Assembly (NCBI GenBank): GCA_943350875.1
Contig: CALRAL010000003.1
Location: 25,174-89,173, forward strand
Direction: 5' to 3'
Source of the DNA: Candidatus Nomurabacteria bacterium
Lineage (GTDB): Bacteria > Patescibacteriota > Minisyncoccia > Phycocordibacterales > UBA9973
Length of the DNA: 64,000 bases
A program made the translations under genes and the position numbers. Position 1 is the stretch's first letter; every line of letters starts with the position of its first letter. The notes beneath the pieces are model-generated. The model was not told the origin of the DNA and ran no database searches. It worked only from the letters and a program-made list of their open reading frames with translations. This document shows positions 15,988 to 54,227 of this stretch, one piece after another.

Positions 15988-17691
15988 ATGCAAAAGTATG
16001 GGGAATTATTAAGAATGCTATTAGAGAAGAGAGGTATAAAGGACGAGGCGCAAGCTGAAGTTTTTCTTAACCCATCTTATAAAAGGGATCTTCACGATCC
16101 GTTTTTAATGAGAGATATGAATGTGGCTTGTGAGAGGATTCTGGAAGCCATAAAAAATAATGAAAGAATAGTTATTTATGCGGATTATGATTGTGATGGT
16201 ATTCCCGGGGCGGTGATTTTACATGATTTGTTTACTAAATTAGATTATAAAAATTACGAGGTTTATATTCCCCAGAGGAATTCGGAAGGTTATGGGTTAA
16301 ATAGTGAGGCAATAGAAATATTTTCAAAAAGTAATGCGAAATTAATAATTACCATAGACTTGGGTATTACAGCTATAGATGAAGTAGCACAAGCAAATGG
16401 CCTTGGCATAGATGTGATTATTACAGATCATCATTTACCTCACAAGAATTTACCAAAAGCTTTGGCCATTTTAAATCCCAAAGTGGATAGTTATCCAGAG
16501 AAGATGTTGTGTGGAGCAGGAGTTGTTTTTAAATTAGTACAGGGTTTAATTCAAAAGATAGTTCCTCAAGGACTTGTCTTGGACCCTCTAAAGGCAAGAC
16601 CTTTCCCCACTATCCTTGATGGTTGGGAGAAATGGATGCTTGATATGGCAGGGCTTGCCACACTTTCAGATATGGTCCCACTTACAGGAGAGAATAGGGC
16701 TATATCTTATTTCGGAATGAAAGTTTTAAGGAAGTCCCCACGTCCAGGATTGATTAAGCTTCTTGCAAAAATGAAAGTGGATCAGAAGTATATGTCAGAA
16801 GATGATGTGAGTTTTATGATTACTCCTAAAATAAATGTCGCTTCTCGCATGGGTGACCCAGTAAAAGCGTATGAACTTCTTTCTGCAAAGGATGAGGCAC
16901 AGGCCGGGGCTATTGTGGATTATTTATTAAAAATAAATGATGAAAGAAAAACTATGGTGACAGGCATAATGCGAGAAGTAAATAAAAAATTAAGCGTAAG
17001 AGAAACAAAAGAAGTAATAGTGATAGGTAATGGTGAATGGAGGGTTGGAGTTTTGGGACTTGTAGCAGGGAAAATCTGTGATGAATATCAAAAGCCAGTT
17101 TTTGTATGGGGCAGAGATGAAAATGACGCTATAAAAGGTTCTTGTCGTTCGGATGGGTCCGTGTCGGTGGTTGAGCTTATGACTGAAGCTACTGAACACT
17201 TTTCTGATTTTGGTGGTCATGAACTAGCAGGAGGTTTTACTGTCCGAAACGATAAAATTCATTTTTTGGAAGATGCTTTATCTGTTGTATTTTTAAAAAT
17301 TTGCGGGAAAAGGCAAGACCTTAAGGAGATTCAAGGTCTTGCATTGAAGAGCGATCTAACTATAAATCTGGGGCAGGTGAATATGAAAAATTGGAATGAG
17401 ATAGAGAAGATGGCGCCTTTTGGCCTAGCAAATCATAAACCAATTTTTCTTTTTGAAAATGTAAAAATAGAAAAAATAAAAAAATTTGGCAAAAATGGTT
17501 CAGGCGAGCATTTGGAAATAATATTTTCTGATTCTTTAGGTAAAGTAAAGGCAATTTCTTTTTTCTCTACCGTTGATTCCTTTAAAAGGACAATCTCAGG
17601 CGGAGAGAGGGTTAAATTACTAGCAAGTTTTGATTTGTCTTATTTTGGTGGTAAAAAAGAGCTTCGATTACGAATTATTGATATAATATAA
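15988..17691 (+). CDS. recJ: Single-stranded-DNA-specific exonuclease RecJ (DHH/DHHA1). It carries two in-frame family-3 element insertions.
   Basis: DYDCDGI, the DHH motif (ITDHH) and a DHHA1 C-terminal region. Insertions lie at 16564-16608 and 17303-17352. Confidence 0.85.
   Translation: MQKYGELLRMLLEKRGIKDEAQAEVFLNPSYKRDLHDPFLMRDMNVACERILEAIKNNERIVIYADYDCDGIPGAVILHDLFTKLDYKNYEVYIPQRNSEGYGLNSEAIEIFSKSNAKLIITIDLGITAIDEVAQANGLGIDVIITDHHLPHKNLPKALAILNPKVDSYPEKMLCGAGVVFKLVQGLIQKIVPQGLVLDPLKARPFPTILDGWEKWMLDMAGLATLSDMVPLTGENRAISYFGMKVLRKSPRPGLIKLLAKMKVDQKYMSEDDVSFMITPKINVASRMGDPVKAYELLSAKDEAQAGAIVDYLLKINDERKTMVTGIMREVNKKLSVRETKEVIVIGNGEWRVGVLGLVAGKICDEYQKPVFVWGRDENDAIKGSCRSDGSVSVVELMTEATEHFSDFGGHELAGGFTVRNDKIHFLEDALSVVFLKICGKRQDLKEIQGLALKSDLTINLGQVNMKNWNEIEKMAPFGLANHKPIFLFENVKIEKIKKFGKNGSGEHLEIIFSDSLGKVKAISFFSTVDSFKRTISGGERVKLLASFDLSYFGGKKELRLRIIDII
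16564..16608. repeat. Family-3 palindromic element, orientation A (CCTCAAGGACTTGTCTTGGACCCTCTAAAGGCAAGACCTTTCCCC), in-frame in recJ
   Basis: Near-identical to 18575-18619 in comEC. It encodes PQGLVLDPLKARPFP. Confidence 0.8.
17303..17352. repeat. Family-3 palindromic element, orientation B (GCGGGAAAAGGCAAGACCTTAAGGAGATTCAAGGTCTTGC...), in-frame in recJ
   Basis: Perfect 10-bp inverted repeat GCAAGACCTT/AAGGTCTTGC. It is homologous to 25269-25320 in argS and is the reverse complement of orientation A. Confidence 0.8.
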
Positions 17692-17696
17692 AGACG

Positions 17697-18227
17697 ATGA
17701 AGAATGATGAGATTATAGTTTATACAGATGGTAGCTCGCTTGGGAATCCTGGGCGGGGCGGTTGGGCTTCTGTTTTAGTGATGCCGGAGGATAAAGTCAG
17801 AGAGTTAGGGGGAAGAGAAAATGAATCCACAAATAACAGGATGGAGATAACAGCTGCTATTGAAGCATTGAAGTTTATTGAGGAGAGAAAAGTAAAAGCA
17901 AAAAGAATAAAAATACACACTGATTCACTTTATTTATTAAATGGTATCACAATGTGGATCTATGTTTGGGTCAAGAATAATTGGCGCACCAAAGGCAAAG
18001 ATCCAGTCCTCAATAAAGATCTATGGGAAATACTTTTTAAAGTTCATTCTAATTTAAAGATGAAATATGAGATAGATTGGATAAAAGTTGAAGGGCACGC
18101 TGGGGTAGATCTAAATGAAAGGTGTGATGTTATAGCTACGAATTTGGCTGGAGAAGAAAGAATGGTTCTATTTACTGGAGATATTAAAGACTATAAAAAA
18201 CTTTTTAGATTCTCTAATATAACTTAA
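17697..18227 (+). CDS. rnhA: Ribonuclease HI
   Basis: VYTDGSSLGNPGRGGWA and TNNRMEITAAIEAL match the RNase H fold signature. Confidence 0.85.
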   Translation: MKNDEIIVYTDGSSLGNPGRGGWASVLVMPEDKVRELGGRENESTNNRMEITAAIEALKFIEERKVKAKRIKIHTDSLYLLNGITMWIYVWVKNNWRTKGKDPVLNKDLWEILFKVHSNLKMKYEIDWIKVEGHAGVDLNERCDVIATNLAGEERMVLFTGDIKDYKKLFRFSNIT

Positions 18228-18229
18228 TA

Positions 18230-19750
18230 ATGAAAGACAAAGCTTTTTACGCTTGTTGTTTTGGTGTCATATTTGGGATATTTTTACGTTCTTTTATTGC
18301 AATAGACATTTATGCACTTATATTTTTTGCTTTAATTTCTATCTCTTTGCTCTTGTTTTTTAGCTTTATCTCAAAAAGAAAATTAGGAATAATATTTTCG
18401 ATTTTTCTATTTGCTTTTTGTTTAGGTGTTTTCAGGTTTCATATATATGACAAAATAAATCCTGATATTTTTGAAACAAAAGTGGGTAAAGAATTTTCTT
18501 TTTCTGGGTTAATAATAGATGAACCAAGCGTTGCAGAAAATAATCAGAAATTAATTATTGAAACAGGATTGGCTCCTCAAGGACTCGCCTTGGACTCCCT
18601 TAAGGCAAGACCTTTTCCCGCCAAAAGTCGCATTTTGGTATCTACGAATTTTGATGAGAGTTTTAAATATGGTGACGAGATAAGTTTTAAGGGAATTTTA
18701 GAAAAACCGGAGAATTTTATTACAGATCAGGGCAAAGAATTTGATTATGTAAATTATCTCAAAAAAGACGGAATATTTTACGTGATGAAATACCCAAAAA
18801 TAGATATTTTGTCCCATAGTAACGGAAGTTTTATAAAAAGTATCTTATTTTCTGCAAAAGAAAAGTTTCTGGATAAAATAAATTTTGTAATTCCAGAACC
18901 AGAGAGCTTACTCATGGGCGGACTTATTTTAGGCGAAAAATCTTCGTTTGGTCAAGAATTAAGGCAAAGTTTTGTAAATACTGGGACTATCCACATAGTG
19001 GCTTTATCTGGGTACAATGTGACAATAGTAGCCGAATGGTTTATGAAATTATTTTCTTTTTTACCTATAAATTTTAGTATTTTTGCTGGTATTTTAGCCA
19101 TCTTACTTTTTATCTTGATGACTGGAGGATCTTCCACTGCTATCAGAGCAGGGGTAATGGCAACTTTGGCTTTGATAGCCCGCGCCACTGGTAGGAATTA
19201 TGATGTGGCGCGGGCGCTTATTCTCTCTGGTGTAGTGATGCTCCTATTTAATCCACTTTTGCTAGTGTATGATGTGTCATTTCAACTATCTTTTTTGGCG
19301 ACCATTGCGGTAATATTTTTGACGCCAAAAATTGAGAAATACTTTTTTTGGGTGACGGAAAGATTTGGTCTGCGGGATGTCGTATCTATCACATTTTCTG
19401 CTTACATTTTTGTGATGCCTTTTATTTTGTATAAGATGGGGAACCTTTCGTTGGTGGCTTTACCTACAAATGTTTTGGTTCTCCCATTTATTCCGTTTAC
19501 CATGTTACTAGGATTTGTGACTGGATTTATAGGACTTATTTCAAGTATCCTAGCTATCCCTCTTGGGTATATTTCTTACTTTTTCTTACATTATGAATTA
19601 TTTATAATTAATTTATTCTCAAACATTCCATTTTCTTCCATATCTATATCAAATTTCCCATTGTTTATTACAATTTTAATTTACATAGTTTTTATTTACA
19701 AAATTTTCGGCACAGATGTTAAAAAACTTTTTACTGTTTTGCCTGAATAA
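18230..19750 (+). CDS. comEC: ComEC/Rec2 competence channel protein (DUF4131 plus competence domain) lacking the C-terminal metallo-beta-lactamase domain. It carries an in-frame family-3 insertion.
   Basis: Polytopic membrane protein with the ComEC competence motif (GTIHIVALSGYNV). The MBL domain is encoded separately at 20342..21211. Confidence 0.75.
   Translation: MKDKAFYACCFGVIFGIFLRSFIAIDIYALIFFALISISLLLFFSFISKRKLGIIFSIFLFAFCLGVFRFHIYDKINPDIFETKVGKEFSFSGLIIDEPSVAENNQKLIIETGLAPQGLALDSLKARPFPAKSRILVSTNFDESFKYGDEISFKGILEKPENFITDQGKEFDYVNYLKKDGIFYVMKYPKIDILSHSNGSFIKSILFSAKEKFLDKINFVIPEPESLLMGGLILGEKSSFGQELRQSFVNTGTIHIVALSGYNVTIVAEWFMKLFSFLPINFSIFAGILAILLFILMTGGSSTAIRAGVMATLALIARATGRNYDVARALILSGVVMLLFNPLLLVYDVSFQLSFLATIAVIFLTPKIEKYFFWVTERFGLRDVVSITFSAYIFVMPFILYKMGNLSLVALPTNVLVLPFIPFTMLLGFVTGFIGLISSILAIPLGYISYFFLHYELFIINLFSNIPFSSISISNFPLFITILIYIVFIYKIFGTDVKKLFTVLPE
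18575..18619. repeat. Family-3 palindromic element, orientation A, in-frame in comEC
   Basis: CCTCAAGGACTCGCCTTGGACTCCCTTAAGGCAAGACCTTTTCCC encodes PQGLALDSLKARPFP. Confidence 0.8.
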
Positions 19751-20327
19751 AGTTTTTTTCAACTGCTTCCCAATTTAAATTTTCAAAAAATGCTTCAATG
19801 TAATGTTTTTTCCCACTTGGTTGAAAGTCTGTGATAAAAGCATGTTCCCACATATCAAGTGCAAGGATGAGTTTGCAGTCTTGAAGTTGTCCTAAATGCT
19901 GTTCATCTACCCAGGCATTCATTAATTTGTTTTCTTTTTTATCAAAATAAAGCATAGCCCAACCGACGCCTCGGATGGTAGCGATACTTTTAAATAATTC
20001 TAGCCATTTTTCAAATGATCCCCATTCTGAAGATATCGCTTTTTTGAGTTCGCTATTTTCTGTCAGATTATTTGATTTTCCAGACAAAGAATTGAAATAA
20101 ATTTCATGATTACGCATACCATTGTATTCAAAACCAAATCTTCTCTGTAATCCACTCAAAATGCCTATATTTTCTTCAGGTTTTACAGATAGTTCTTCTA
20201 TTTTAGCCAGCACTAAGTTTGATTGATTCACATACCCCGCATAGAGTTTTAGATGTTCCTCGATGTTTTTAGCACTTATGCCTTTTAACTCACCAATGTT
20301 AAACTTCTGTTCTTCAAATTTTTTCAT
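19731..20327 (-). CDS. sodA: Fe/Mn superoxide dismutase
   Basis: 198 aa with the DMWEHAF signature and N-terminal metal-ligand His residues. It is convergent with comEC and overlaps it by about 20 bp. Fe versus Mn specificity cannot be decided from the sequence. Confidence 0.85.
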   Translation of the reverse strand: MKKFEEQKFNIGELKGISAKNIEEHLKLYAGYVNQSNLVLAKIEELSVKPEENIGILSGLQRRFGFEYNGMRNHEIYFNSLSGKSNNLTENSELKKAISSEWGSFEKWLELFKSIATIRGVGWAMLYFDKKENKLMNAWVDEQHLGQLQDCKLILALDMWEHAFITDFQPSGKKHYIEAFFENLNWEAVEKNFIQAKQ

Positions 20328-20341
20328 GCTAGTATTATAAC

Positions 20342-21211
20342 ATGCTTCTATATTGCAAAAAGTATGGACTGTTGATTTTTATTTTAGTCCTGATTTTTGC
20401 AGACTTTTTCATTTTTAAAATTGATTTACAAAGTTCAAATCATGAGCTTACTTTTGCGATGCTTGATATTGGGCAAGGTGATGCTATTTTTATACAATCG
20501 CCGACTGGTACACAGATCATGTTTGATGGTGGGCCGATACATAAAGTTCTAGGTCCACTTTCTCGTGTCATGCCTTTCTATGATAAAACTATAGATGCGA
20601 TTGTTATTACAAATCCTGATGCAGATCACATCGGAGGATTTTTAGATATTTTAAAGAATTATAAAGTTAGTACGGTATTTGAGCCAGGAACGAGTAATGT
20701 GTCAAAAACATATCAGAATTTAGAAAATGAAATAAAAAAACAAAATATTAAAGATGTTTTAGTAAAAAGGGGGATGAGGTTAGATATCGGCGGGGGAGCA
20801 TATATAGATATTTTATTCCCGGATCGTGATGTGTCTTCTTGGAGTACAAATGACGGTTCTATAGTGGCAAGACTTGTATATGGTAACACCTCTGTGATGC
20901 TGACTGGAGATGCGACAAAGATGACAGAGCAAATAGTTATGGCAGAGAATTCACCTTCGAAATTAAAAAGTAATATTTTGAAAGTTGGACATCATGGCTC
21001 ACATACTTCTACATCAGCAGAATTTATACAGGAAGTTGCGCCTGCTTATGCGCTCATTTCTGATGGTAAAAATAATAAATATGGACATCCGCATCAAGAA
21101 ACTCTAGACACTTTGAATAATTTTGGCACGAAGATTTTTAGGACTGATTTGTTGGGTACTATAATTATAAATTCAGATGGAGAAAAGTTTTCTTTCATCA
21201 CGAATTTTTGA
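20342..21211 (+). CDS. MBL-fold metallo-hydrolase that corresponds to the detached C-terminal domain of ComEC
   Basis: 289 aa with MLDIGQGDA, HxHxDH-like PDADHIGG and a C-terminal HHGSH. It has an N-terminal TM anchor. Confidence 0.7.
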   Translation: MLLYCKKYGLLIFILVLIFADFFIFKIDLQSSNHELTFAMLDIGQGDAIFIQSPTGTQIMFDGGPIHKVLGPLSRVMPFYDKTIDAIVITNPDADHIGGFLDILKNYKVSTVFEPGTSNVSKTYQNLENEIKKQNIKDVLVKRGMRLDIGGGAYIDILFPDRDVSSWSTNDGSIVARLVYGNTSVMLTGDATKMTEQIVMAENSPSKLKSNILKVGHHGSHTSTSAEFIQEVAPAYALISDGKNNKYGHPHQETLDTLNNFGTKIFRTDLLGTIIINSDGEKFSFITNF

Positions 21212-21326
21212 TCGACACGCATAATTTTCTGCTGAAAATTTGCTATGCTCGGCCCAGTCGGCCTGTGCAATGTCTCTCAAAAACTGTGATTTCAAGAAAA
21301 ACTATAATTTATGATACAATAAAAAC

Positions 21327-22523
21327 ATGCAAGACAAACAAGTGGAAAAATTAATAAAAGATGAGGCAAAAAGGCAGAAAAGCGTCATAAATCTCATAGC
21401 TTCTGAGAACTATGTTTCCAAGGATATTTTACAAGCCTTGGGCTCAGAATTGACCAATAAATATGCAGAAGGGTACCCTGGGAGGCGATATTACGGAGGT
21501 AACACTATCATTGATAAAGTTGAGAATTTGGCCATTTCTCGTGCCTTAAAATTGTTCAAGTTAAAACCTGAGGATTGGCATGTGAATGTGCAACTCCTAT
21601 CTGGTAGCCCTGCGAACTTTGCTCTATATTCCGCTCTTGTATCCCCAGAATTTGATAAAGAAGGCAAACCAACAAAAAAAATCATGGGTATGAAATTGAC
21701 TTCTGGTGGGCACCTTACTCACGGACATCCGCTTTCGATAACTGGTAAACTCTGGAAATCAATCCAGTTCGAATTAGATCCTGTGACTCAAATGATTGAT
21801 TATGAAAAATTAAAAGCTTTGGCTGTGGCAGAAAAGCCAGATATCATAGTGGCTGGATTTACTGCGTATCCTCGTTTTGTAGATTTTAAAAAATTTAGAG
21901 AAATTGCAGATGTGTCAGATTCTTTGCTCCATGTAGATATGTCTCACTTTGCAGGACTCGTGGCAGGGGGAGTGTATCCTTCGCCATTTCCTTATGCCGA
22001 TAGTGTGATGACAACTACTCACAAATCTCTCCGCGGTCCAAGGCAAGCTATTTTATTTGTGAAAAAAGATGAACGTGGATTTGATAAGAAATTAGACAAA
22101 ATGGTTATTCCAGGACTTTTTGGTGGCCCTCATGAGAACAATATTGCAGGTGTAGCTATAGCTCTCAAAGAAGATGATACTCCGGCTTTCAAAAAATATG
22201 CAAAGCAAGTCGTGAAAAATGCGCAGACTCTTGCGAAAGGATTACAGAAATTAGGTTGGAAGATTATTTCTGGCGGGACTGATTCACATTTGATATTAAT
22301 GGATACTTTTTCTTCAAAAGGTATCTCTGGAAAAGAAGCGAGTGAAAAATTAGAAAAGGCAGGAATAATAGTAAATATGAATACTGTGCCAGGGGATACA
22401 CGCAGTGTCATGGACCCTTCTGGTATTCGTCTTGGCACTTGCGCAGAAACTACTCGTGGAAAGAAAGAAAAAGATATGCTCAAAATTGCCCAGAAAATAG
22501 ATAAAATTTTAAAAGGGAAATAA
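21327..22523 (+). CDS. glyA: Serine hydroxymethyltransferase
   Basis: 398 aa with SHMT motifs including the PLP-lysine region TTTHKSLRGPR. Confidence 0.9.
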   Translation: MQDKQVEKLIKDEAKRQKSVINLIASENYVSKDILQALGSELTNKYAEGYPGRRYYGGNTIIDKVENLAISRALKLFKLKPEDWHVNVQLLSGSPANFALYSALVSPEFDKEGKPTKKIMGMKLTSGGHLTHGHPLSITGKLWKSIQFELDPVTQMIDYEKLKALAVAEKPDIIVAGFTAYPRFVDFKKFREIADVSDSLLHVDMSHFAGLVAGGVYPSPFPYADSVMTTTHKSLRGPRQAILFVKKDERGFDKKLDKMVIPGLFGGPHENNIAGVAIALKEDDTPAFKKYAKQVVKNAQTLAKGLQKLGWKIISGGTDSHLILMDTFSSKGISGKEASEKLEKAGIIVNMNTVPGDTRSVMDPSGIRLGTCAETTRGKKEKDMLKIAQKIDKILKGK

Positions 22524-22527
22524 AAAT

Positions 22528-23220
22528 ATGATAAAAAGTGGCAAATTGATTGTGATAGACGGTACGGATGGGAGCGGGAAGACTACTCAGGCAGAATTGT
22601 TGATAAAACATCTAAAAGCAAATAAGCAAAAAGCAAAGTTTATTCATTTTCCACGATACGAAGATAATTTCTTTGGTAAATTCATAGCTCATTGTCTTTC
22701 TGAACAATATTACAATTGGGTAAATATTCACCCTAAAATAGCCAGCATTGCATATGCAGCTGATAGATGGGAGTCTTCAGAGAAAATCAAAAATTGGATA
22801 AAGAAAGGATATACAGTGGTTATGGATAGATATGTCTCTTCAAATCAAATACATCAAGGTGGTAAGATCGCTAATGTGAAGAAAAGAGAAGCATTTATAA
22901 AGTGGCTTGCTGAATTAGAGTATAAAGTTTTTAAAATTCCGGAACCAGATATGACTGTGTATTTGTCTTTACCCATCGAGATAGTTTTAAAATTAATAAA
23001 AAGCAGGGATTACAAAGGAGCCCGGGTATATCTAAACAGCAAAAAAGATGTTCATGAAAAGGACAAGAACTTTTTGAAGAATTCTATCAATAGCGCATTC
23101 TGGCTTTCTAAAACCCAGAAGAATTGGATAAAGATTGATTGTTCAAAGAATGGAGAGATTTTACCACGTGAAGAAATTCATGAGATGATTTATGAAAAAG
23201 TTAAAAAGATTATAAAATAA
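22528..23220 (+). CDS. tmk: Thymidylate kinase
   Basis: P-loop IDGTDGSGKTTQ, and DRY..S..AYQ-like VMDRYVSSNQIHQ. Confidence 0.8.
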   Translation: MIKSGKLIVIDGTDGSGKTTQAELLIKHLKANKQKAKFIHFPRYEDNFFGKFIAHCLSEQYYNWVNIHPKIASIAYAADRWESSEKIKNWIKKGYTVVMDRYVSSNQIHQGGKIANVKKREAFIKWLAELEYKVFKIPEPDMTVYLSLPIEIVLKLIKSRDYKGARVYLNSKKDVHEKDKNFLKNSINSAFWLSKTQKNWIKIDCSKNGEILPREEIHEMIYEKVKKIIK

Positions 23221-23223
23221 ATG

Positions 23224-23345
23224 AATCCCGTTAGAAATCATATAGTTAAGTTATGTTTCTTGGAAAAAATAAATTATGAATTATATAAAAATCATTATTA
23301 ATAAGTTAACTACGGAAATCTAAAGATTTCCTATTTCTAACGGGA
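23224..23345 (+). other. Long-range inverted repeat (AATCCCGTTAGAAAT ... ATTTCTAACGGGAT) enclosing an inner hairpin GGAAATCTAAAGATTTCC, in the tmk-dut intergenic region
   Basis: Seen directly in the sequence. The 13-bp arms lie about 90 nt apart. Confidence 0.4.
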
Positions 23346-23779
23346 TGAAACTAAAAATTAAAAAATTAAAAGAAGGGGCGAAGTTACCAACACATGGACA
23401 CCCAGGAGACGCAGGGATAGATATTTATGCGCTTGGAGAAGTGATTTTTTTACCCCATGAACAGAAACGGGTATATACCGGAATTGCATTTGAAATTCCT
23501 GAAGGGTATGTGGGTTTGGTGTGGGACAAGTCCAGTATTTCTTTCAATAAAAGTCTTAAAATTATGGGAGGAGTTATTGATGCCTGTTTTCGAGGAGAAT
23601 TTGTCGCTTCAATGGTGAATCTGTCGGATCAAAAACAAGTCATTGAAAAGGGTCAAAAATTTACTCAAATGGTTATACAGAAATTCGAGCATTGTGATAT
23701 TGTAGAGGTAGATAAATTGTCAGAAACTGCAAGAGGAGAAGGTAGAGAAGGGAGTACTGGTCATATGCACAAGGAATAG
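23345..23779 (+). CDS. dut: dUTP diphosphatase
   Basis: 144 aa with the GxxGDAGIDI and trimeric dUTPase motifs. Confidence 0.85.
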   Translation: MKLKIKKLKEGAKLPTHGHPGDAGIDIYALGEVIFLPHEQKRVYTGIAFEIPEGYVGLVWDKSSISFNKSLKIMGGVIDACFRGEFVASMVNLSDQKQVIEKGQKFTQMVIQKFEHCDIVEVDKLSETARGEGREGSTGHMHKE

Positions 23780-23780
23780 A

Positions 23781-25583
23781 ATGATAAAAGAAAAAATAGA
23801 AAAATTAATAAAAGATGCGTTGAAAAGTCTCGGTCTCGAAGATCTTAATTTTGTGGTAGAACATCCAGAGGATTTGAAGAATGGAGATTATTCTACAAAT
23901 GTAGCAATGGTTTGTGCTAAAAATCTAAAAACAAATCCTAGAGAATTGGCAGAAAATATAGTTGCCGAGTTAAAAAACTCTCCCCTTGCCAAGGGGGAGG
24001 TTGGAGGGGGTCTAATACATGAAATTCAAATAGCCGGTGCTGGGTTTATCAATTTTTATCTTTCTCGTGAATTTTTTTCAAACTCCATAAAAGAAATCCT
24101 AGAACAAAAAGAAAATTGGGGTAAAAATAGTTTCCTTGCGGGGAAAAAGGTAATGGTGGAATATACAGACCCAAATCCTTTTAAACCTTTTCATATCGGG
24201 CATTTGATGAGTAATGCTATAGGTGAATCAATATCAAGAATTTTTGAATTCTCTGGAGCACATACTGTTCGTGCAAATTATCAGGGTGATGTAGGGCTTC
24301 ATGTGGCCAAAGCAATATATGGGATTTTGAATGACCCTCTCGCCTTCGACACTCCCCCTTGGCAGGAGGAGATTGGAACGATGCCTGCTTCTGTGCAGGC
24401 AGACTATATTGGGCGATTCTATGCAAAAGGCAGTGATGCTTATGAAAGTGATGAAAAAGCAAAAAATGAAATTGATGAAATAAATAAAAAAGTTTATGAA
24501 AAAAGTGACGATGAAATAAATAAAATATATAATTGGGGTAGAAGAGTCACATTAGAGGCTTTTGAAGAAATATATAAAGTTCTTGGAACAAAATTCAAAT
24601 ATTACTTTTTTGAAAGCGAGATGGCGCCTATTGGCAATAAAATAGTCCGTGCAAATATGAGTAAAATTTTTGAAGAATCAGATAACGCAATAATTTTTCA
24701 TGCCGAAACATACGATCCAAAACTCCACACTCGTGTATTTGTAACTTCAAAGAATTTACCTACATATGAAGCAAAAGAAATTGGCTTAACATTCACAAAG
24801 TTTGAAAAAGAAAATCCAGATATTTCTGTAGTAGTGACAGCACACGAGCAAGCTGAATATATGAAAGTTGTAGCGAAAGCCATCTCACTAATACACCCTG
24901 AATACGAAAACAGGATGAAACACATCACTCATGGTATGATGCGCCTAGCCTCGGGCAAGATGTCTTCTCGAAAGGGAAATGTGGTCACCGGTGAATCCCT
25001 TTTGCATGATTCGATAGATACGATAAAAGAAAAAATATCCGCCCGAGGCGGACCAGCCTTGGGCTGGAAAGAAGTAGAAGTTCAAGAAGTTTCAGAATCT
25101 GTGGGAGTATCGGCGCTTAAATATTCAATTCTTCGTTCCTCAATGGGTTCTGATATAGTTTATGATTTTGAGAAGTCCATTTCGTTTGAAGGTGATTCTG
25201 GGCCATATCTGCAATATTCTGCAATTCGTGCGAAATCAGTTTTAGCAAAAGCTGGCGATACCAACTTTGGCGGGAAAAGGTCAGACCTTAAGAATTTAGA
25301 AAGGTCTGTCCTTGAGGAGCCAAAAGAAGTTTCAAATTTAGAAAAAACCCTATATCGTTTCCCCGAAGTTGTAGTTTTGTCATATCAAAAGTTTGAACCA
25401 CATCATATTGCAACATATCTGACAGAACTTGCCTCATCATTTAACACTTTTTACACAGAAACAAAAATAATAAACGAAGCAGATAAATATTCACCATATT
25501 ATCTTGCATTGACCAAAGCATTTCTACAAACAATACAAAACGGCCTTTGGCTCCTTGGCATCACTCTGCCAGAGAAGATGTAA
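23781..25583 (+). CDS. argS: Arginine--tRNA ligase. It carries two in-frame GC-rich element insertions.
   Basis: 600 aa with HIGH (PFHIGHLMS), the DALR anticodon-binding domain and a C-terminal Met. Insertions lie at 23981-24017 and 25269-25320. Confidence 0.9.
   Translation: MIKEKIEKLIKDALKSLGLEDLNFVVEHPEDLKNGDYSTNVAMVCAKNLKTNPRELAENIVAELKNSPLAKGEVGGGLIHEIQIAGAGFINFYLSREFFSNSIKEILEQKENWGKNSFLAGKKVMVEYTDPNPFKPFHIGHLMSNAIGESISRIFEFSGAHTVRANYQGDVGLHVAKAIYGILNDPLAFDTPPWQEEIGTMPASVQADYIGRFYAKGSDAYESDEKAKNEIDEINKKVYEKSDDEINKIYNWGRRVTLEAFEEIYKVLGTKFKYYFFESEMAPIGNKIVRANMSKIFEESDNAIIFHAETYDPKLHTRVFVTSKNLPTYEAKEIGLTFTKFEKENPDISVVVTAHEQAEYMKVVAKAISLIHPEYENRMKHITHGMMRLASGKMSSRKGNVVTGESLLHDSIDTIKEKISARGGPALGWKEVEVQEVSESVGVSALKYSILRSSMGSDIVYDFEKSISFEGDSGPYLQYSAIRAKSVLAKAGDTNFGGKRSDLKNLERSVLEEPKEVSNLEKTLYRFPEVVVLSYQKFEPHHIATYLTELASSFNTFYTETKIINEADKYSPYYLALTKAFLQTIQNGLWLLGITLPEKM
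23981..24017. repeat. Family-2-type GC-rich hairpin (CTCCCCTTGCCAAGGGGGAGGTTGGAGGGGGTC), in-frame in argS
   Basis: CTCCCC/GGGGAG stem. It is related to the CCCCTTGTCAGGGGG and GGAGGGGGTTGGGGGTGG modules at 60524, 63845 and 52830. Confidence 0.6.
25269..25320. repeat. Family-3 palindromic element, orientation B, in-frame in argS
   Basis: GGCGGGAAAAGGTCAGACCTTAAGAATTTAGAAAGGTCTGTCCTTGAGGAGC encodes GGKRSDLKNLERSVLEE. Compare recJ GKRQDLKEIQGLALKS. Confidence 0.8.
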
Positions 25584-29583: not shown

Positions 29584-29715
29584 TCCACTTTACTTTACTA
29601 AACTAAAGTAGATAGGAGGGGGGAATGGGAGTTTTTTTTAAAGGTCTTTCCTTGAAGGGGGAGCGTAGCGACGGGAAAGGTGAGGCCTTGGGGAGTTTTG
29701 TGGTAGACTTAAGGG

Positions 29716-30143: not shown

Positions 30144-33100
30144 ATGGCAATTACCAACATTGGAACAAATACATTATCTTCAAACCTAAAAACAATCTTA
30201 CCTGAGTGCGACAAGATTGATGCTTTAGTTGGCTATTTTTATTTTTCAGGGTTTAAAGATTTACACAATGAACTAAAAGATAAACAAATCCGTATTCTTG
30301 TGGGAATGGATATTGATAAAAAAATTATTGAAAAAGTATCAACGTTAAAAGAATTAAATTTAGACTCTTATTCTATAGATACTCACATAACTTCCCGATC
30401 AAGTGTTACTGAAGATTATATTGATAATTTCTCTCAAATTTTTAATGATAATGATTATTTCGATAACGAAGAATCACAAAATGCATTTGAAATATTTTTG
30501 AATAAAATAAAAGACGGTAGTTTGCAAATTAAGAAAACAGCTAAGGCTAACCACTCTAAATTTTATATACTACATAATAAAAATGGAGGCGGAATAGTAA
30601 TTGAGGGCTCAAGCAATTTAACGTTATCCGGATTGCGAGGACAAGCGGAACATAATAGAATCTTGACTGAAAAACATTATTACGATGATGATGTAAATAG
30701 ATTTGAAGAATGCTGGAACGATCAAGAGAATATAATTTTAACTAATATTGAATCAGCGGATAATTTTATAAAAGAAGTAAAAAGTAAAATTTGGTTATAT
30801 GCATTACCTGACCCACTGTTAATGTATTATAGAGTTTTAAATGAATATTTCTCAATTACTGAAATTGAGAATATGAAGACTCCTAAAAACATAACTGCTG
30901 GTAAGTTCTCTGATTTAAAATATCAAAAAGATGCGATTAATTTAGGTATTGATAGAATAAACAAATTTGGTGGTGTAATTATTGCAGATGTTGTTGGACT
31001 TGGAAAAAGTATTATTGCTTCAGCAATTGCACATAATTTGGGATTAAAAACTGTGATAATTGCTCCACCTCATCTTGAAGATCAATGGAATGACTATCGT
31101 TCTGATTTTAATTTTAACGGATTTGTTTACAGCACAGGTAAAATTGAAGAAGCCCTTGAAAGACATCAAAATGACGAAAAACTCCTCATTGTTTTAGATG
31201 AAGCACATAAACATAGAAATGAGGATACAGATAATTATAAACTTCTTCATAAACTTTGTGCCGGTCATCCTGTTATGGCTCTTTCTGCCACACCATTTAA
31301 CAATGATCCTAAAGATATTTATGCTTTGATAAAATTATTTAGTACACCCGGACAATCTACCATAAGGACAGTAGAAAATTTAAGCATGGCTTTCCATACT
31401 CTTTTTAAGAGATATAAAAAAGTTAGAAAAGATTTAAGAAAAACTAATGCAAAGGAAGAAAAGAAAGATGAAGTAAATAAAGAATCACATGAAATAGCAA
31501 AATATCTTAGAATAATGATCGAACCACTCATTATTCGTCGTTCCCGTAGAGATTTAGAAGAAATAGAAGATTATAAAAATGACCTAAAAAATCAAGGGGT
31601 TGCTTTTGCGAAAGTGAAAGAACCGGAATTGCTAGAATATCCACTTAACGGAATGTCAGACCTTTACATTAGAACACTTGAAAAAATATCACCGAATGAT
31701 AAAAGTGTAAGTTTTCGTGGTGTTCGATACAAGATATTAAGTTATTTAAAAGAGGGTTCAAATTTTGCTGAAAAATTAGTAGAAGATATTGATGATGATA
31801 GTATTTCTGCAGAAGAAAAAGTACAGCAAATTAAACAAGCTCAAGTAAACATAGCAAAATTTATGAGACGTTTGCTTGTGCGTAGATTTGAGAGTTCTGT
31901 TGGTGCTTTCAACATATCTCTTGAAAATATGATAACTTCTTCTGAAAAAATTCTTGAATGGTATAAAAATAGGCAAGAAATTCCAATATATAAGAAGGGT
32001 GAACTACCAACCGCAGAATATCTAAACGATTTAGATGAGGAAGAATTGGAGGGGGTTTTATCTAATTTGGACGCTAAAGGATTAATTCGTGTTCCCACTT
32101 CTGAATTACAATCTTCTTTTGAAAAACACTTAAATGAAGATATCGCATTATTAAAAAAAATAAAATCAGAATGGTTAGAAAATAATGAAGATCCTAAATT
32201 TGATTTCCTTAAAGAAAAAATTGCGAATTCTATATCAAGTGATTCTAATAGGAAAATTATAATTTTTACTGAATTTTCTGATACTGCAAATTATTTATTT
32301 AAAAAATTTAATGAGGATAATTTTAAGCGTATTTTCAAATATAGCTCAGAGGATTCTAACGATACTAATAAAAAGATTATTCGTTCAAATTTTGATGCTG
32401 GATTAGAAAAATTACAACAGGCTAACGATTTTGATGTAATTATCGCCACAGATGCAATTTCTGAAGGTTTTAATTTACATAGAGCAGGAAGTGTTATAAA
32501 TTACGATATTCCTTATAATCCAACAAAGGTTATACAGCGAGTTGGTCGTATTAATCGCATTAATAAAAAAGTTTTTGAAGAATTATATATTTTTAACTTT
32601 TTTCCTACATTTATTGGTGAAGAAGAAACCGGTATGCGTTCTATATCCACACTAAAAATGGATTTTATTCATGATCTTTTGGGTGAAGATACAAAAATCT
32701 TAACAAAAGAGGAAGACCTGAAAAATTATTTTGCTAAACAATATCAAGAAGAAAATACTAAAAATGATAGTTTGTCTTGGGATGCAAGATATAGAAATGA
32801 TTGGCTTAAAATAAAAGATGATCAAGATATAATTGCAAAAATTTCAAAGATTCCTCATAGATCAAGAATTGCTAGAAAATCTAAAGATATTTCTGGTGTT
32901 GTAGCATTTGCAAAAAAGGGTTCAAATTACATTTTTGCATTTGGTGAGAACCCTGAAAATGTTCGGATTGTTTCGCCTGAAGAAGCATTACCACTTTTCA
33001 ATGAAGTTGCTGATATGGAAAAATCTCTTGAGACAAGTATTAAATTTGAGCCCATCTATAAAATAGCAAAAGAACATATATTTAAGGACAATACCCACGC

Positions 33101-33404
33101 ACCGATAGACACCGGCAGAAGACAAGACGCTTTGTTGAAATTAACCCTTATCAAAGAAAACTACACACAAGCAGTTGAGTTGTGTAAAGATTTAGAGACT
33201 TTAATAAAAGATTTTGATGCGCTACCAAATGGGTTACTAAAAGATATTATTGACTTATCTATTGATAGAAATGATTATAGTAAGATTTTTAAAGAATTAA
33301 AAAATATGTTTCCTAATAATTATATTAAAAAGTTATTCCTAACAGCTGATAAAGCCAAAGATAATGGAAAACTTATTGTATTATCCGAAGAACTAATTGC
33401 ATGA
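30144..33404 (+). CDS. Fusion protein of a PLD-family (HKD) nuclease domain and an SNF2/SF2 helicase. Candidate restriction or DISARM-like DrmC+DrmD-type effector.
   Basis: 1086 aa. The N-terminus has the HKD motif NHSKFYILHNKNGGGIVIEGSSNLT. The SNF2 motifs are I (ADVVGLGKS), II (LIVLDEAHKHRN), III (SATPFNND) and V/VI (TDAISEGFNLHRAGSVINYDIPYNPTKVIQRVGRINR). It overlaps the downstream MTase by 4 bp. Confidence 0.75.
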   Translation: MAITNIGTNTLSSNLKTILPECDKIDALVGYFYFSGFKDLHNELKDKQIRILVGMDIDKKIIEKVSTLKELNLDSYSIDTHITSRSSVTEDYIDNFSQIFNDNDYFDNEESQNAFEIFLNKIKDGSLQIKKTAKANHSKFYILHNKNGGGIVIEGSSNLTLSGLRGQAEHNRILTEKHYYDDDVNRFEECWNDQENIILTNIESADNFIKEVKSKIWLYALPDPLLMYYRVLNEYFSITEIENMKTPKNITAGKFSDLKYQKDAINLGIDRINKFGGVIIADVVGLGKSIIASAIAHNLGLKTVIIAPPHLEDQWNDYRSDFNFNGFVYSTGKIEEALERHQNDEKLLIVLDEAHKHRNEDTDNYKLLHKLCAGHPVMALSATPFNNDPKDIYALIKLFSTPGQSTIRTVENLSMAFHTLFKRYKKVRKDLRKTNAKEEKKDEVNKESHEIAKYLRIMIEPLIIRRSRRDLEEIEDYKNDLKNQGVAFAKVKEPELLEYPLNGMSDLYIRTLEKISPNDKSVSFRGVRYKILSYLKEGSNFAEKLVEDIDDDSISAEEKVQQIKQAQVNIAKFMRRLLVRRFESSVGAFNISLENMITSSEKILEWYKNRQEIPIYKKGELPTAEYLNDLDEEELEGVLSNLDAKGLIRVPTSELQSSFEKHLNEDIALLKKIKSEWLENNEDPKFDFLKEKIANSISSDSNRKIIIFTEFSDTANYLFKKFNEDNFKRIFKYSSEDSNDTNKKIIRSNFDAGLEKLQQANDFDVIIATDAISEGFNLHRAGSVINYDIPYNPTKVIQRVGRINRINKKVFEELYIFNFFPTFIGEEETGMRSISTLKMDFIHDLLGEDTKILTKEEDLKNYFAKQYQEENTKNDSLSWDARYRNDWLKIKDDQDIIAKISKIPHRSRIARKSKDISGVVAFAKKGSNYIFAFGENPENVRIVSPEEALPLFNEVADMEKSLETSIKFEPIYKIAKEHIFKDNTHAPIDTGRRQDALLKLTLIKENYTQAVELCKDLETLIKDFDALPNGLLKDIIDLSIDRNDYSKIFKELKNMFPNNYIKKLFLTADKAKDNGKLIVLSEELIA

Positions 33405-36400
33405 TAAATTTTAATGATAAATATAATTATAATGAGTTTATAGATTTCTTATGTAACTTTCTACCGAATGACTTCAAGGAAATAGAAAAAGATATTGTTA
33501 TAAAAAAAGAAAGATATAAAGAAATTTCTAAAGCAAAAATACTTGGCTATTCAAGCTCTTTAGATTTGCATGTATTAGAAATGGATCATGCTCGTGAAAA
33601 TGACCCGAGAATTACGATTGCGACAGATGCTTTCAAAATACTTGCTGATAATTGGGTACATAAAGCTTTAGTAATCTTCAAGAACAGCACTTCAGATAAT
33701 TATCGATTTTCTTACTTAACAATATCTATAGATTTAAATGATAAAAATAAACCAATTAAAACATATTCAAACGCCCGCCGGTATTCTTTTTATCTTGGTT
33801 CCGGCGCAAAAATTAACACCCCAAAACAACAACTTGTTAGTAAGGGTCGAATAAAAGATTTAAATGATTTAGTAAGTAGATTTTCTGTTGAAGTTGTGAA
33901 TAAGCAATTTTACTTTGAGATTGCAAAATTCTTTGATGAACTTGTTTCGAGTGAGGATAAAAATCTAGCACTTCCGGGTATATCAGAAGAAGACACGAAT
34001 ATCAGAAAGAGTTTTGCTGTTCGGCTTATTGGTCGTATAATGTTTTGTTGGTTTTTGAAACAGAAAAAATCTGACAATGGTCAACTTATTCCTGATGAAC
34101 TACTTTCCTCAAAAACAGTATCGGATAGTTATTATCACAGTACTCTTGAACCATTATTTTTCGGCGTATTAAATACCAGCATTGAATCTCGAGATATTCG
34201 TAGTGATTTGTTTGATAAAGTGCCGTATCTCAATGGAGGACTGTTTAATCCTCAATCAGACGACTATTATGACCTAGATAGAGAAACTTTTACCTCGAGA
34301 CATATTAACACTCTTAAAATCAGTGATGACTGGTTCAAGAACTTCTTTGAGCTTCTCGAGACTTATAATTTTACAATTGATGAGAATACTGTTTTTGATC
34401 AAGAGCTTTCTGTTGATCCAGAAATGCTTGGAAGGATTTTTGAGAATTTGCTTGCAGAAATAAACCCAGAAACTGGAAGCAGTGAGCGTAAGCGTACGGG
34501 AAGTTTTTATACGCCACGTCAGATTGTTGAATATATGGTAGACCAGTCTTTGATTGAATATTTAAAAACAAAAACAGGGATTCAAGATAAAAAATTATCT
34601 GCTCTTGTTAGCTACGATTTAGCAGACGATACAGAGCACCCACTAGACGATAAGGATAAACAAGAAATAATAAACGCAATAGAATCTCTTAAAATTCTTG
34701 ATCCAGCTTGTGGTTCGGGGGCATACTCAATCGGTGCGCTTCAAAAAATTGTTTATATTCTTCAACAAATAGATCCAGATTGTAAATTATGGCTTGAGCA
34801 AAAATTAAAAGGTGTTCCAGAGTTGTATAAGAAAAAAATAATTGATGAAGTTAAATCGAACCCTTTTGACTACACACGGAAACTAGATATTATTAAAAAT
34901 TCAATCTTTGGCGTAGATATTCAGCCAATTGCTGTAGATGTTTCCCGTTTGAGATGCTTTTTGACACTTGTCGTTGAGTCAGAAGTAAATGATACAAAAC
35001 TAAACAGAGGGATAGAACCTTTACCGAACTTGGACTTTAAATTTGTCTGTGCAAATACTTTGATTAGCTTGCCAAAATCTCAATCTAGCAATCTTTTCGA
35101 AGACCATTCCGGTATCATCGAGCTTTCAAAAATAATGTCGGAATATTTCTCTTGCAATAGCCAAAGAAAAAATGAAATTAAACTTAAATTTACAAATTTA
35201 CAAAAAGAAATACTAGAAAAGACAATATCCGCTTTCGGTAAAAATACGGGAGAGCTAACTTTAAAACTTACAACTTGGAATCCATTTAGTAATAATTCAA
35301 ATTCTTGGTTTGACCCGGAATGGATGTTTGGGTTGGAGGAAAAGTTTGATGTGGTTATCGGTAATCCGCCCTATGTTGATTCAGAGACAATGGTAAAAGA
35401 TAACCCTGATTTGAGAAATTTGTATACTTTGCTTTACAAAACAGCTATAGGTAATTGGGATTTGTTTATCATTTTTATAGAGCAGGGCATCAATTTTCTA
35501 AGCAATTATGGAAATTTGTCATTTATCGTGCCTAACAAATTGATTGCTGCGAAATATTCTGAGTCTATTAGATTACACATGCAGACTAAAAATATAAAAT
35601 ACATAAGAGATTATTCTGATGTGAGAGTATTTAAGGAAGCGAGCGTGTATCCTATTGTTTTTCAGATATCGAACTCATTGAATTCAGATTCAAGCGTTAT
35701 CTTAACAAAAATGAAAGATATCGAAGAATATGAATTAATTAACAAAATACCCCATGCACTGTTTTATGCGGATGTATTTTGGGATAGGTATTTTATAAAA
35801 CCAGAAGCACTCAAGGTAATTATTAAAATCTCACAAAATCCTAAACTTGAAAAAATTAATGATTTAGTTTTGGGTGCAGCCACTGTTAATGAAGCATATA
35901 AATTAAAAGAAATTATTACTGAGGCAGAAATTGAAAAACAAGAATATAAAAAACTAATTAATTCCGGGACAATTGATCCATATACTTCTTTATGGGGTGA
36001 CAAAAAAACTCAATATATTAAATCGTCATATAAAGTGCCTGTGGTGGAAAATGACAAGCTAAATAAATTATTACCGAGACGATTTATTCAAGCAAATAGT
36101 GAAAAGCTTATTATTGCCGGGATGTCAAAGAGATTAGAGGTTTTCTATGATTCCGGTGAATACATTGCTGGTAAATCTACCACAATCATTTTAAATAATG
36201 AGAAAATTGACTTGTTATATTTACTTGCAGTTCTTAATTCAAAATTGATTTCTTATTGGTATAAGGTATATTTTAGTTCTTTGTCACTTGCTGGAGGTTA
36301 TTTGAGAATTAGTAATAACGAAATCAAAAAGATTCCAATTGTAGTGGCTAATAAAAAGACGCAAGAAGGTATAATTAAAATTGTTAACCAAATTCACGAT

Positions 36401-36514
36401 TGTAAAAAAGGAAGTAATAAAAATACAGACGACCTAGAGTCAAAAATTGATGAATTGGTCATGGATTTATACGGACTAAATGAAGATGAAAAAGAAATTA
36501 TTAGAAATTCGTAA
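33401..36514 (+). CDS. Large gamma-class N6-adenine DNA methyltransferase (Eco57I/type IIG/BREX-PglX-like) with a C-terminal specificity region
   Basis: 1037 aa with LGRIFENLL...GSFYTPRQIVEYMV, motif I LDPACGSGAYSIG and motif IV VIGNPPYV. It is translationally coupled to the PLD-SNF2 gene. Confidence 0.8.
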   Translation: MINFNDKYNYNEFIDFLCNFLPNDFKEIEKDIVIKKERYKEISKAKILGYSSSLDLHVLEMDHARENDPRITIATDAFKILADNWVHKALVIFKNSTSDNYRFSYLTISIDLNDKNKPIKTYSNARRYSFYLGSGAKINTPKQQLVSKGRIKDLNDLVSRFSVEVVNKQFYFEIAKFFDELVSSEDKNLALPGISEEDTNIRKSFAVRLIGRIMFCWFLKQKKSDNGQLIPDELLSSKTVSDSYYHSTLEPLFFGVLNTSIESRDIRSDLFDKVPYLNGGLFNPQSDDYYDLDRETFTSRHINTLKISDDWFKNFFELLETYNFTIDENTVFDQELSVDPEMLGRIFENLLAEINPETGSSERKRTGSFYTPRQIVEYMVDQSLIEYLKTKTGIQDKKLSALVSYDLADDTEHPLDDKDKQEIINAIESLKILDPACGSGAYSIGALQKIVYILQQIDPDCKLWLEQKLKGVPELYKKKIIDEVKSNPFDYTRKLDIIKNSIFGVDIQPIAVDVSRLRCFLTLVVESEVNDTKLNRGIEPLPNLDFKFVCANTLISLPKSQSSNLFEDHSGIIELSKIMSEYFSCNSQRKNEIKLKFTNLQKEILEKTISAFGKNTGELTLKLTTWNPFSNNSNSWFDPEWMFGLEEKFDVVIGNPPYVDSETMVKDNPDLRNLYTLLYKTAIGNWDLFIIFIEQGINFLSNYGNLSFIVPNKLIAAKYSESIRLHMQTKNIKYIRDYSDVRVFKEASVYPIVFQISNSLNSDSSVILTKMKDIEEYELINKIPHALFYADVFWDRYFIKPEALKVIIKISQNPKLEKINDLVLGAATVNEAYKLKEIITEAEIEKQEYKKLINSGTIDPYTSLWGDKKTQYIKSSYKVPVVENDKLNKLLPRRFIQANSEKLIIAGMSKRLEVFYDSGEYIAGKSTTIILNNEKIDLLYLLAVLNSKLISYWYKVYFSSLSLAGGYLRISNNEIKKIPIVVANKKTQEGIIKIVNQIHDCKKGSNKNTDDLESKIDELVMDLYGLNEDEKEIIRNS

Positions 36515-37118: not shown

Positions 37119-37127
37119 CAAGTGAAA

Positions 37128-37304: not shown

Positions 37305-37351
37305 ACCGTTCTTGCTATAGGACATGACTTCAAGAACTTATCGATGAAACT

Positions 37352-54202: not shown

Positions 54203-54227
54203 CTTTAAATTATATCACAACGAAGGT

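Follow-up and report, generated by a model that had tools for sequence, protein, structure and literature searches.

How does a palindromic DNA element come to lie in frame, and in both orientations, within genes for unrelated proteins? The question is raised by a 64-kb stretch (the window) of a 150-kb metagenome contig (G+C content, ~35%) from a “Candidatus Nomurabacteria” bacterium (Patescibacteria), in which an initial annotation had reported a repeated palindrome, here called family 3, in recJ, comEC, and argS. Family 3 is probably a doublet of a module resembling repetitive extragenic palindromic (REP) sequences, comparable to the inverted REP doublets known as REPINs, served in Patescibacteria by a Y1 enzyme resembling the REP-associated tyrosine transposases (RAYTs) and located mostly within genes.

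Family 3 copies in the window

The four copies initially annotated, two in the open reading frame (ORF) of RecJ (15988 to 17691) and one each in those of ComEC (18230 to 19750) and ArgS (23781 to 25583), lie where they had been placed. Their peptides were confirmed on translation, all within uninterrupted ORFs, and a covariance model assigned two copies to each strand. The same model also recovered a fifth copy in ileS, which was absent from its training set, and a decayed intergenic relic, both overlooked initially, and nothing more above noise:

16557 to 16614, minus strand, copy 1, in recJ at linker site 1 (62.7 bits)
17299 to 17356, plus strand, copy 2, in recJ at linker site 2 (62.7 bits)
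18568 to 18625, minus strand, copy 3, in comEC (73.4 bits)
25266 to 25324, plus strand, copy 4, in argS (75.6 bits)
42438 to 42499, plus strand, copy 5, in ileS (34.6 bits; E value, 2.6e-7)
29640 to 29694, plus strand, decayed intergenic relic (21 bits; E value, 0.002)

Each of the window's five intact double-arm copies lies within a gene. Copy 1 encodes PQGLVLDPLKARPFP (outer stem GATAGT/ACTATC), copy 2 encodes GKRQDLKEIQGLALKS, and copy 3 encodes PQGLALDSLKARPFP (outer stem TTGGC/GCCAA). The argS copy encodes GGKRSDLKNLERSVLEEP, including GKRSDLKNLERSVLEE, and has inner pentamers TCAGA/TCTGT and outer stem TTTGGC/GCCAAA. Arms AAGGACAGTCCTT/AAGGACTGTCCTT and a 14-nucleotide (nt) loop form the ileS copy, which encodes IQGQSLREFPQGLSFK. 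The relic consists of GGGAAAGG-TGAGG-CCTTGGGGAG with a noncomplementary partner arm. Copies 1 and 3 share 87% identity over 46 nt. With at most one mismatch, the 13-mer AAGGCAAGACCTT occurs six times in the window versus 0.06 expected, and AAGG-N5-CCTT occurs 11 times in 64 kb versus 1.5 expected. Rfam searches of the whole window at gathering thresholds, and of 16400 to 18800 permissively, returned nothing relevant.

Anatomy and covariation

The repeat had been described as an element of ~45 to 50 bp. It is real, but the structured unit is longer (~58 nt), because the locus-specific outer stem and the internal loop belong to it. The unit comprises an outer stem of 5 to 6 bp that differs at every locus, a symmetric 5-by-5 internal loop (GGGAA/GAGGA, with one strand all purine), a 13-bp inner stem (AAGG-N5-CCTT), and an apical loop of 10 to 14 nt; it can be read as two inverted 13-nt modules separated by a spacer of 10 to 14 nt.

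Pairing was retained in 95.2% of cells in a 26-copy alignment of the window and related genomes, the source of the covariance model, and both sides of a pair had changed in 94 cells versus 25.5 in shuffles, with covariation at 6/6 outer pairs and 5/5 variable inner pairs; members of this set were picked partly for pairing, so more weight falls on a scan with free pentamers and an outer-stem control. The scan, in which both N5 pentamers were unconstrained, found at least 117 loci among species-representative genomes (one per species), nearly all in Patescibacteria. For the 105 Patescibacteria-type copies among the matches listed, the N5 arms had no mismatch in 84, one in 18, and two in 3; at most one mismatch was thus found in 102/105, compared with ~1.6% calculated by chance. 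An outer stem of 6 bp or more was present in 41/145 copies versus ~7 when 5′ and 3′ flanks were paired randomly. Stem mismatches, judged by eye in a few cases at related loci, comprised ~6 G:T and 2 to 3 A:C on the sense strand; those in the window were transversions only. These numbers are too small for the asymmetry to serve as evidence on a constraint at the RNA level. Viral contigs gave zero matches to the pattern with unconstrained N5.

This pattern of change bears on two other explanations. One holds that the segments are a protein-level module, a short linear motif (GKRxDLK...QGLxL) selected for peptide function, as the similar peptides in several proteins might imply. It is scarcely credible: substitutions follow base pairing rather than the peptide (RSDL...GPTL versus RQGL...GLAL), the opposite orientation gives a different peptide, and the same DNA is also found between genes. 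The other invokes local de novo formation of palindromes by template switching (quasi-palindrome correction) without shared descent. Outer stems are indeed locus specific and perfectly complementary, and outward templated extension of a hairpin is expected to leave net insertions shorter than the structure, as is the case here (see below). Nevertheless, the GGGAA/GAGGA loop and the loop classes AAGGGAGCCC and AAGAATTCAAA are common to unrelated genes and genomes, and local copying cannot be the source of such shared, nonpalindromic parts. Template switching is therefore very improbable as a primary origin but may be a secondary process behind the outer stems.

Insertion and turnover in host genes

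The window RecJ is ~70% identical to proteins named Candidatus Nomurabacteria, Paceibacterota, or Patescibacteria. Residues 193 to 204 (site 1) and parts of 444 to 451 (site 2) are missing in >50% of 120 homologues, in which site 1 usually reads KKYGEYFKIK and site 2 is usually a short linker, KR...YDIKSDL. The ComEC copy is a clean 14-amino-acid insertion relative to four syntenic orthologues, and the ArgS copy adds a net 9 amino acids relative to three. These comparisons, which the initial annotation had proposed, cover the four recJ, comEC, and argS copies of the five intragenic ones; most orthologues were without the segments, which supports the view, from sequence, that the segments are insertions. 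The AlphaFold model of RecJ (mean predicted local distance difference test [pLDDT] score, 86.4) has three segments scoring <50, two of which are the inserts (residues 196 to 201 and 445 to 452), located between confident helices. On this model, the insertion sites appear compatible with the protein fold, as surface loops.

The tree of RecJ homologues places family 3 at site 2 in seven sequences representing six separate clades, in addition to one decayed copy, and the nearest relatives of these carriers are element free or have other palindrome-derived peptides. Three RecJ genes with ~90% protein identity carry, at the same spot, a family 3 hairpin, the palindrome TCGCTCGCGAGCGA, and an unrelated sequence, respectively, indicating that both RecJ linkers are hot spots of rapid turnover. 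DNA alignment of RecJ genes with 86 to 91% identity showed linker turnover and no clean empty site.

Other inserts were observed in the same proteins. The equivalents of the window RecJ linkers (~190 to 205 and ~440 to 455) in other Nomurabacteria (e.g., P0018, P0053, P0068, P0006, and P0021) contain at least four other insert families, with peptides FLPAELALLKQSSSAKS, AEDCLSE.SSAGKK, TLKNTPSALGTSPYVGGGQVG, and SEKGQSLKNSERTVLE. The DNA is palindromic at the one site examined (locus L126), and a palindromic origin of the others is presumed from their peptides. Compared with its orthologues, ArgS (23781 to 25583; 600 amino acids) has two further inserts specific to the window, NSPLAKGEVGGGL (near residue 66) and PLAFDTPPWQEE (near residue 186), giving approximately four in total (family 3, a double hairpin described below, and these two).

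Conservation of the segments at the protein level in distant orthologues had been named as an observation that would argue against insertion. RecJ, ComEC, and ArgS do not show it, but topA-like and ligA-like genes of other Patescibacteria genomes do keep the element at the same site, in four orthologues with 61 to 85% identity and three with ~72% identity, respectively. Stem complementarity at these sites is complete or almost complete, although the inner pentamers differ, as do even the loop classes; the elements are conserved at least as well as the flanking coding DNA. As judged from these sequences, it is pairing and not the peptide that is conserved.

Such compensatory pairing over considerable divergence would suit a cis-acting hairpin selected by the host, either an RNA signal (pausing, stability, or attenuation) or a DNA signal (uptake or protein binding) kept within genes for its function. 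Several hosts are DNA metabolism genes (recJ, comEC, and the topA-like and ligA-like genes), and some free-standing copies are terminator-like. However, both orientations occur within mRNAs of the same strand, so an RNA signal would be strand inconsistent. Most recJ, comEC, and argS orthologues are without the element, close relatives have other palindromes at the same spot, and the only constant parts are AAGG/CCTT and the purine loops. Known uptake signals occur at ~1 per kb, and the density of the element, ~1 per 11 to 13 kb, is far lower. Host selection for such a signal is consequently quite unlikely. The specific idea of a DNA uptake sequence was rejected, as the central pentamer varies, only AAGG/CCTT is fixed, and the 64 kb contain 11 occurrences of AAGG-N5-CCTT; restriction site mimicry was considered and dropped.

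Reading frame and coding copies

The copies had been described as always in frame. All four keep their ORFs intact, but the pattern is largely survivorship: the canonical element, read directly from its sequence, is open in three of six phases, and an intact essential gene can carry only an open, length-compatible copy. Excision from mRNA was dropped as an idea, all genic copies being open and in frame. The in-frame copies are presumably translated, and family 3 appears, by its sequence, to be an in-frame palindrome that adds a family-specific peptide. Because the element is palindromic, its arms fall in equivalent codon phases whichever way it is oriented, and QGL(A/V)L therefore appears in the peptides of both orientations.

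Among the matches listed, ORFs of 150 codons or more contain 67/105 copies (64%) and those of 100 codons or more contain 80/105 (76%), while 25/105 (24%) are clearly intergenic. The 67 copies in the longer ORFs are read in the GKRxDLK phase (37 copies), in a second phase of the same strand (19), or on the opposite strand (11). Phase usage is thus uneven, although the search pattern itself favors one orientation in this count. The purine-flanked form accounts for 22/67 coding but only 2/25 noncoding copies listed, a bias that, with flanks encoding G-K-R and L-E-E, suggests a sublineage adapted to reading frames.

Free-standing hairpins

That a single hairpin family populates both genes and intergenic regions, as initially proposed, was borne out. 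Identical inner hairpins, e.g., with loop AAGAATTCAAA, occur both inside ORFs and between genes in related genomes. Perfect hairpins with 5-nt loops in the Patescibacteria loci examined are closed most often, by a wide margin, by AGG/CCT (27/144), and the loop pentamers of free hairpins (CAAGA, TCTGA, TCCGA, TCGAA, ACCGT, and GTTCC) are those in the inner stems of coding copies. The single-module form, with a variable stem, AGG, a 5-nt loop, and CCT, outnumbers every other intergenic hairpin in these Patescibacteria. The link between coding and free-standing forms was correct, but their geometry differs: the core forms the apex (AGG, 5-nt loop, and CCT) of free-standing hairpins and an arm of the 13-bp stem in coding copies. 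Nor is the core identical throughout, as had been thought; GCAAGACC is exact at 37419, 57471, and 59845, but the sequence near 38699 is GCAAGGCC. Single-module hairpins in the window are intergenic and include the following:

37410 to 37434, hairpin AATTGCTAGG-CAAGA-CCTAGCAATT, not terminator-like
38690 to 38712, hairpin GCTAGG-CCTTG-CCTAGC, core one base off GCAAGACC, terminator-like
57457 to 57491, hairpin GTCAAAGTTGCTAGG-CAAGA-CCTAGCAACTTTGAC, terminator-like
59775 to 59807, hairpin TATTAATATCAAGG-ACTAC-CCTTGATATTAATA, with an AAGG-N5-CCTT apex, terminator-like
59835 to 59892, adjacent hairpins GCGTTAGG-TCTTG-CCTAACGC and ACACAGG-CGTTG-CCTGTGT, between convergent genes

A simple terminator consensus was matched by the free-standing hairpins at 38693, 53604, 57457, and 59775 but not by those at 37410 and 59838. 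The five double-arm copies do not qualify as intrinsic terminators; they lie inside ORFs, and only the ileS copy was flagged, on the antisense strand.

Two features of the surrounding noncoding DNA were also observed. The 37410 hairpin lies within a tandem duplication of ~410 bp (36957 to 37493) in a 1.3-kb noncoding stretch, with blocks (36957 to 36993/37364 to 37400 and 37024 to 37081/37436 to 37493) that are 95 to 97% identical; AGGCCTTACCT occupies the equivalent place in the first repeat. A run of ten G (CGCGCGGGGGGGGGG), unusual at 35% G+C, lies between genes at 57518 to 57537, just 3′ of the 57457 hairpin.

A Y1 transposase gene and its hairpins

The window contains one copy of a gene for a Y1 transposase, bracketed by hairpins of the single-module type:

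54271 to 54966, plus strand, Y1 (HUH, IS200-like) transposase gene of the REP-associated type (PF01797), 231 amino acids
54227 to 54255, hairpin TACACAGG-GTTCC-CCTGTGTA, with an AGG-N5-CCT apex, ending 18 nt 5′ of the Y1 start
54942 to 54970, the same hairpin with the loop inverted (GGAAC), overlapping the Y1 stop codon
53604 to 53636, third hairpin, ACACAGG-GTTCC-CCTGTGT, at the metG 3′ end, ~600 nt upstream of Y1, terminator-like on the minus strand

A Pfam scan of window ORFs detected Y1_Tnp (PF01797) in 54190 to 54966 at 33 bits (cutoff, 23); the likely start is the ATG at 54271, and the protein has the motifs YHIYNRG, MPNHFHLL (HFH), and YIYSYIHLNP (YxxxYIHLNP). The best match in a fold search with a model of the Y1 protein was 4er8 (E value, 1e-4), in which the REP-associated transposase of Escherichia coli is in complex with a REP hairpin; the TnpA proteins of IS608 and ISDra2 ranked next. 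More than 7,700 homologues were found, and those with a source name are mostly from Candidatus Nomurabacteria. A phmmer search of the ORFs of the loci examined with an approximate IS200 TnpA query gave no match, and the Y1 gene was detected by the Pfam scan only.

The association of hairpin and gene extends to other genomes. Among 80 metagenomic Y1 homologues surveyed, an AGG-N5-CCT hairpin was present within 200 nt upstream in 48/75, downstream in 44/72, and on both sides in 34/67. AGG closure was found in 104 of ~117 hairpins near Y1 homologues, while the remaining 169 kb of these loci contained only 14 such hairpins. Where each side had a hairpin, the two loops were reverse complements in 21 pairings, identical in 10, and unrelated in 10. 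The family 3 architecture itself flanks one homologue (L026) on both sides, as double-arm AAGG-TACGA-CCTT...AAGG-TCGTA-CCTT, and double-arm forms also adjoin Y1 genes at L204, L164, L185, L188, L173, and L166. Exact AAGG-CAAGA-CCTT was found beside a homologue at L143, AAGG-ACAGT-CCTT, as in the ileS copy, at L132 and L158, and hairpins of the free-standing window types at L197 (CTAGG-TCTTG-CCTAG) and L161 (GCGTTAGG...CCTAACGC, as at 59838). At no flank position of 103 Y1-adjacent hairpins did conservation exceed 50%, so the hairpin foot carries no conserved tag; the bases that are conserved lie at the apex.

The gene order AI-2E transporter-metG-Y1-tatD is kept at L129, and Y1-tatD is kept at L130; other Y1 homologues, and the contig of RecJ homologue P0010, have different gene contexts. 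An ORF of 183 amino acids (53651 to 54202, minus strand) lies beside the Y1 gene, between two Y1-type hairpins. It has no Pfam, NCBIfam, or PADLOC match, is missing from the otherwise syntenic L129 locus, and may be a hairpin-bounded cargo insertion.

Proposed mechanism and maintenance

Adjacency and fold suggest that the Y1 enzyme moves family 3 elements. It would recognize the folded, single-stranded hairpin and cut and rejoin it, as IS200/IS605 and RAYT enzymes do, thereby seeding hairpin copies around the chromosome. Approximately nine-tenths of such a small genome is coding, so most landings would fall in genes. A copy would survive only in an open phase (one of three), with a net length that keeps the frame and a hydrophilic peptide of 6 to 17 amino acids in a tolerant surface linker.

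Several observations weigh against this proposal, in addition to the partial selection of the 26-copy set for pairing. Neither a target duplication nor an exact insertion junction could be defined, and net insertions (18 to 42 nt) are shorter than the 58-nt unit, so that the outer structure seems partly to coincide with host sequence. The best NCBIfam match of the Y1 protein, NF047646 (REP-associated tyrosine transposase), scored 38 bits, below the cutoff of 80, and the protein is accordingly termed RAYT-like rather than an equivalog. A Y1-family profile had no match among PDB sequences, and the single Y1 sequence reached only 4er8, at an E value of 0.32; the relationship was settled by the fold search. 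Classical REPs have a GTAG/CGTC-like tag at the hairpin foot, which is lacking here, and are extragenic by definition, whereas family 3 copies are mostly intragenic. Furthermore, that the Y1 enzyme acts on these hairpins at all is something we infer. The window Y1 gene is flanked by GTTCC hairpins, and family 3 copies use CAAGA, TCAGA, and ACAGT; it is therefore assumed that a single enzyme serves all of these pentamers.

This difference in pentamer type is compatible with a selfish palindrome of the type found in Rickettsia that spreads independently of a transposase, by recombination or replication slippage at hairpins, the hairpins beside Y1 genes being a separate matter. The in-frame genic habit, a peptide for each orientation, the location in loops, and the patchy distribution all match descriptions of Rickettsia palindromic elements (RPE). 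However, AAGG-N5-CCTT, the exact CAAGA core, and the double-arm form occur beside Y1 genes far more than elsewhere, and such hairpins are known substrates of Y1 enzymes (4er8 and 2vjv). Spread without a transposase is, on balance, rather unlikely.

The perfect stems at the topA-like and ligA-like sites are a further difficulty for REPIN-like mobility, since they fit simple selfish decay poorly and need continued selection or gene conversion. Old stems would be kept up by selection on the hairpin, by conversion from other copies, or by excision and reinsertion into a retained scaffold. An extension of the REPIN/RAYT interpretation, which we consider unlikely, is that the Y1 enzyme or hairpin-templated conversion keeps rewriting genic hairpins in place, as a domesticated REPIN/RAYT system inside reading frames. 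Surface linkers of essential proteins would then contain a fixed scaffold (the outer stem and purine loop) into which inner hairpin cassettes could be exchanged. If this were true, perfect stems would be kept for very long periods and protein loops would be diversified incidentally.

Other repeats and neighboring loci

The window contains further palindromic repeats. A second family is a G+C-rich double hairpin (GTCCGCC-CAAG-GGCGGA followed by CCGCC-TCTG-GGCGG), and its three genic copies are in frame, with peptides of the SA(R/Q)GG(P/S)A.G(W/G)K type:

25029 to 25070, in argS
40675 to 40716, in ileS
62409 to 62450, in an ORF of 600 amino acids on the minus strand
57587 to 57628, intergenic

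The minus-strand nusA gene has two in-frame 39-nt palindromic repeats (PARN.SHSDAGGE; 97% identical), at 2134 to 2172 and 3091 to 3129, of which one falls in the N-terminal domain and the other at the C terminus. A 59-nt repeat of two hairpins (GCCC-TAAA-GGGC and CTCCTCC...GGAGGAG) occurs in frame in metG (52849 to 52907; peptide, HHLALKGSPPQQGGEE) and between genes (60594 to 60652), with 92% identity. An 11-bp perfect inverted repeat in comEC (19178 to 19215; GCCCGCGCCAC/GTGGCGCGGGC) lies within the conserved segment ARATGRNYDVARAL and is thus a coding palindrome within conserved protein sequence; it is kept in three orthologues with compensatory synonymous changes and missing in two (loci compared include L004, L006, and L128). 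A candidate defense pair at 30144 to 36514 comprises a PLD(HKD)+SNF2 helicase, which best matches “HKD+Snf2” and DrmD in PADLOC, and, after it, a protein resembling type IIG restriction-methyltransferases (Eco57I/MmeI type).

Comparison with known systems

The literature searched contained no earlier description of such elements in the Candidate Phyla Radiation (CPR)/Patescibacteria and none tying RAYT or REPIN to Patescibacteria. By definition, REP and REPIN repeats lie outside genes, and work on their transposases has been confined almost entirely to Proteobacteria. Palindromes inserted in frame have long stood out as a peculiarity of Rickettsia, and no enzyme is known to mobilize them. Inserts of this kind account for much length variation in conserved Patescibacteria proteins and are liable to mislead sequence alignment, phylogenetic inference, and structure prediction for such genomes.

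Among known elements, IS200/IS605 and their nonautonomous derivatives share the enzyme fold (2vjv, 2xm3, and 2f4f) and have subterminal hairpins that are read single stranded. They have distinct left and right ends and move with the gene, whereas the family 3 hairpin is dispersed alone and the Y1 gene keeps its neighborhood in close relatives. The coding palindromes of Nematomorpha mitochondria (PMC6649704) and the GC-rich hairpins of fungal mitochondria are likewise perfect inverted repeats in translated, A+T-rich genes that preserve stem pairing and protein function together. Those repeats are much longer or different in sequence and have no associated transposase. Both arms encode conserved protein in Nematomorpha (PMC6649704), while family 3 adds an extra linker.

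RPE (Ogata et al. 2000, as summarized in PMC10969869) resemble family 3 as in-frame palindromes in unrelated housekeeping genes, with a family-specific peptide, fold-compatible positions, and other copies between genes. They measure ~100 to 150 bp, occur in Rickettsia only, and have no known transposase, in contrast to a unit of ~58 nt that is found in many Patescibacteria lineages and is linked to Y1 genes. Family 3 does not belong to RPE, given these differences in size and host; sequence likeness was sought through Rfam only, and none was found.

The closest comparison is with REP/REPIN-RAYT systems, which are defined by inverted REP doublets and a Y1 gene flanked by cognate palindromes (PMC3337134 and PMC5581495). 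Family 3 is, like them, a short, dispersed palindromic module whose inverted doublet and spacer fold into a long hairpin (PMC3337134, PMC5581495, and 4er8). The shared features further include a Y1/HUH gene bracketed by cognate, often inverted hairpins, singlets that are long palindromes with stems specific to the locus (described in Pseudomonas fluorescens SBW25), and the persistence of copies at orthologous positions. Unlike REP/REPIN elements, family 3 copies are mostly in genes and in frame, the unit is smaller (36 to 58 nt), the motif is apical (C-A-AGG/CCT-T-G) without the GTAG/CGTC foot tag, the central pentamer is free to vary, also between copies in a single genome, and the Y1 enzyme is distant (below the NCBIfam cutoff) in a patescibacterial host. 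The two phenomena, extragenic REPINs and in-frame palindromic inserts, meet in CPR, where REPIN-like hairpins occur alongside a RAYT-like gene, with most copies in essential genes and with stem pairing and protein coding kept together over deep divergence. The comparison offers a concrete candidate mechanism for in-frame palindromic inserts.

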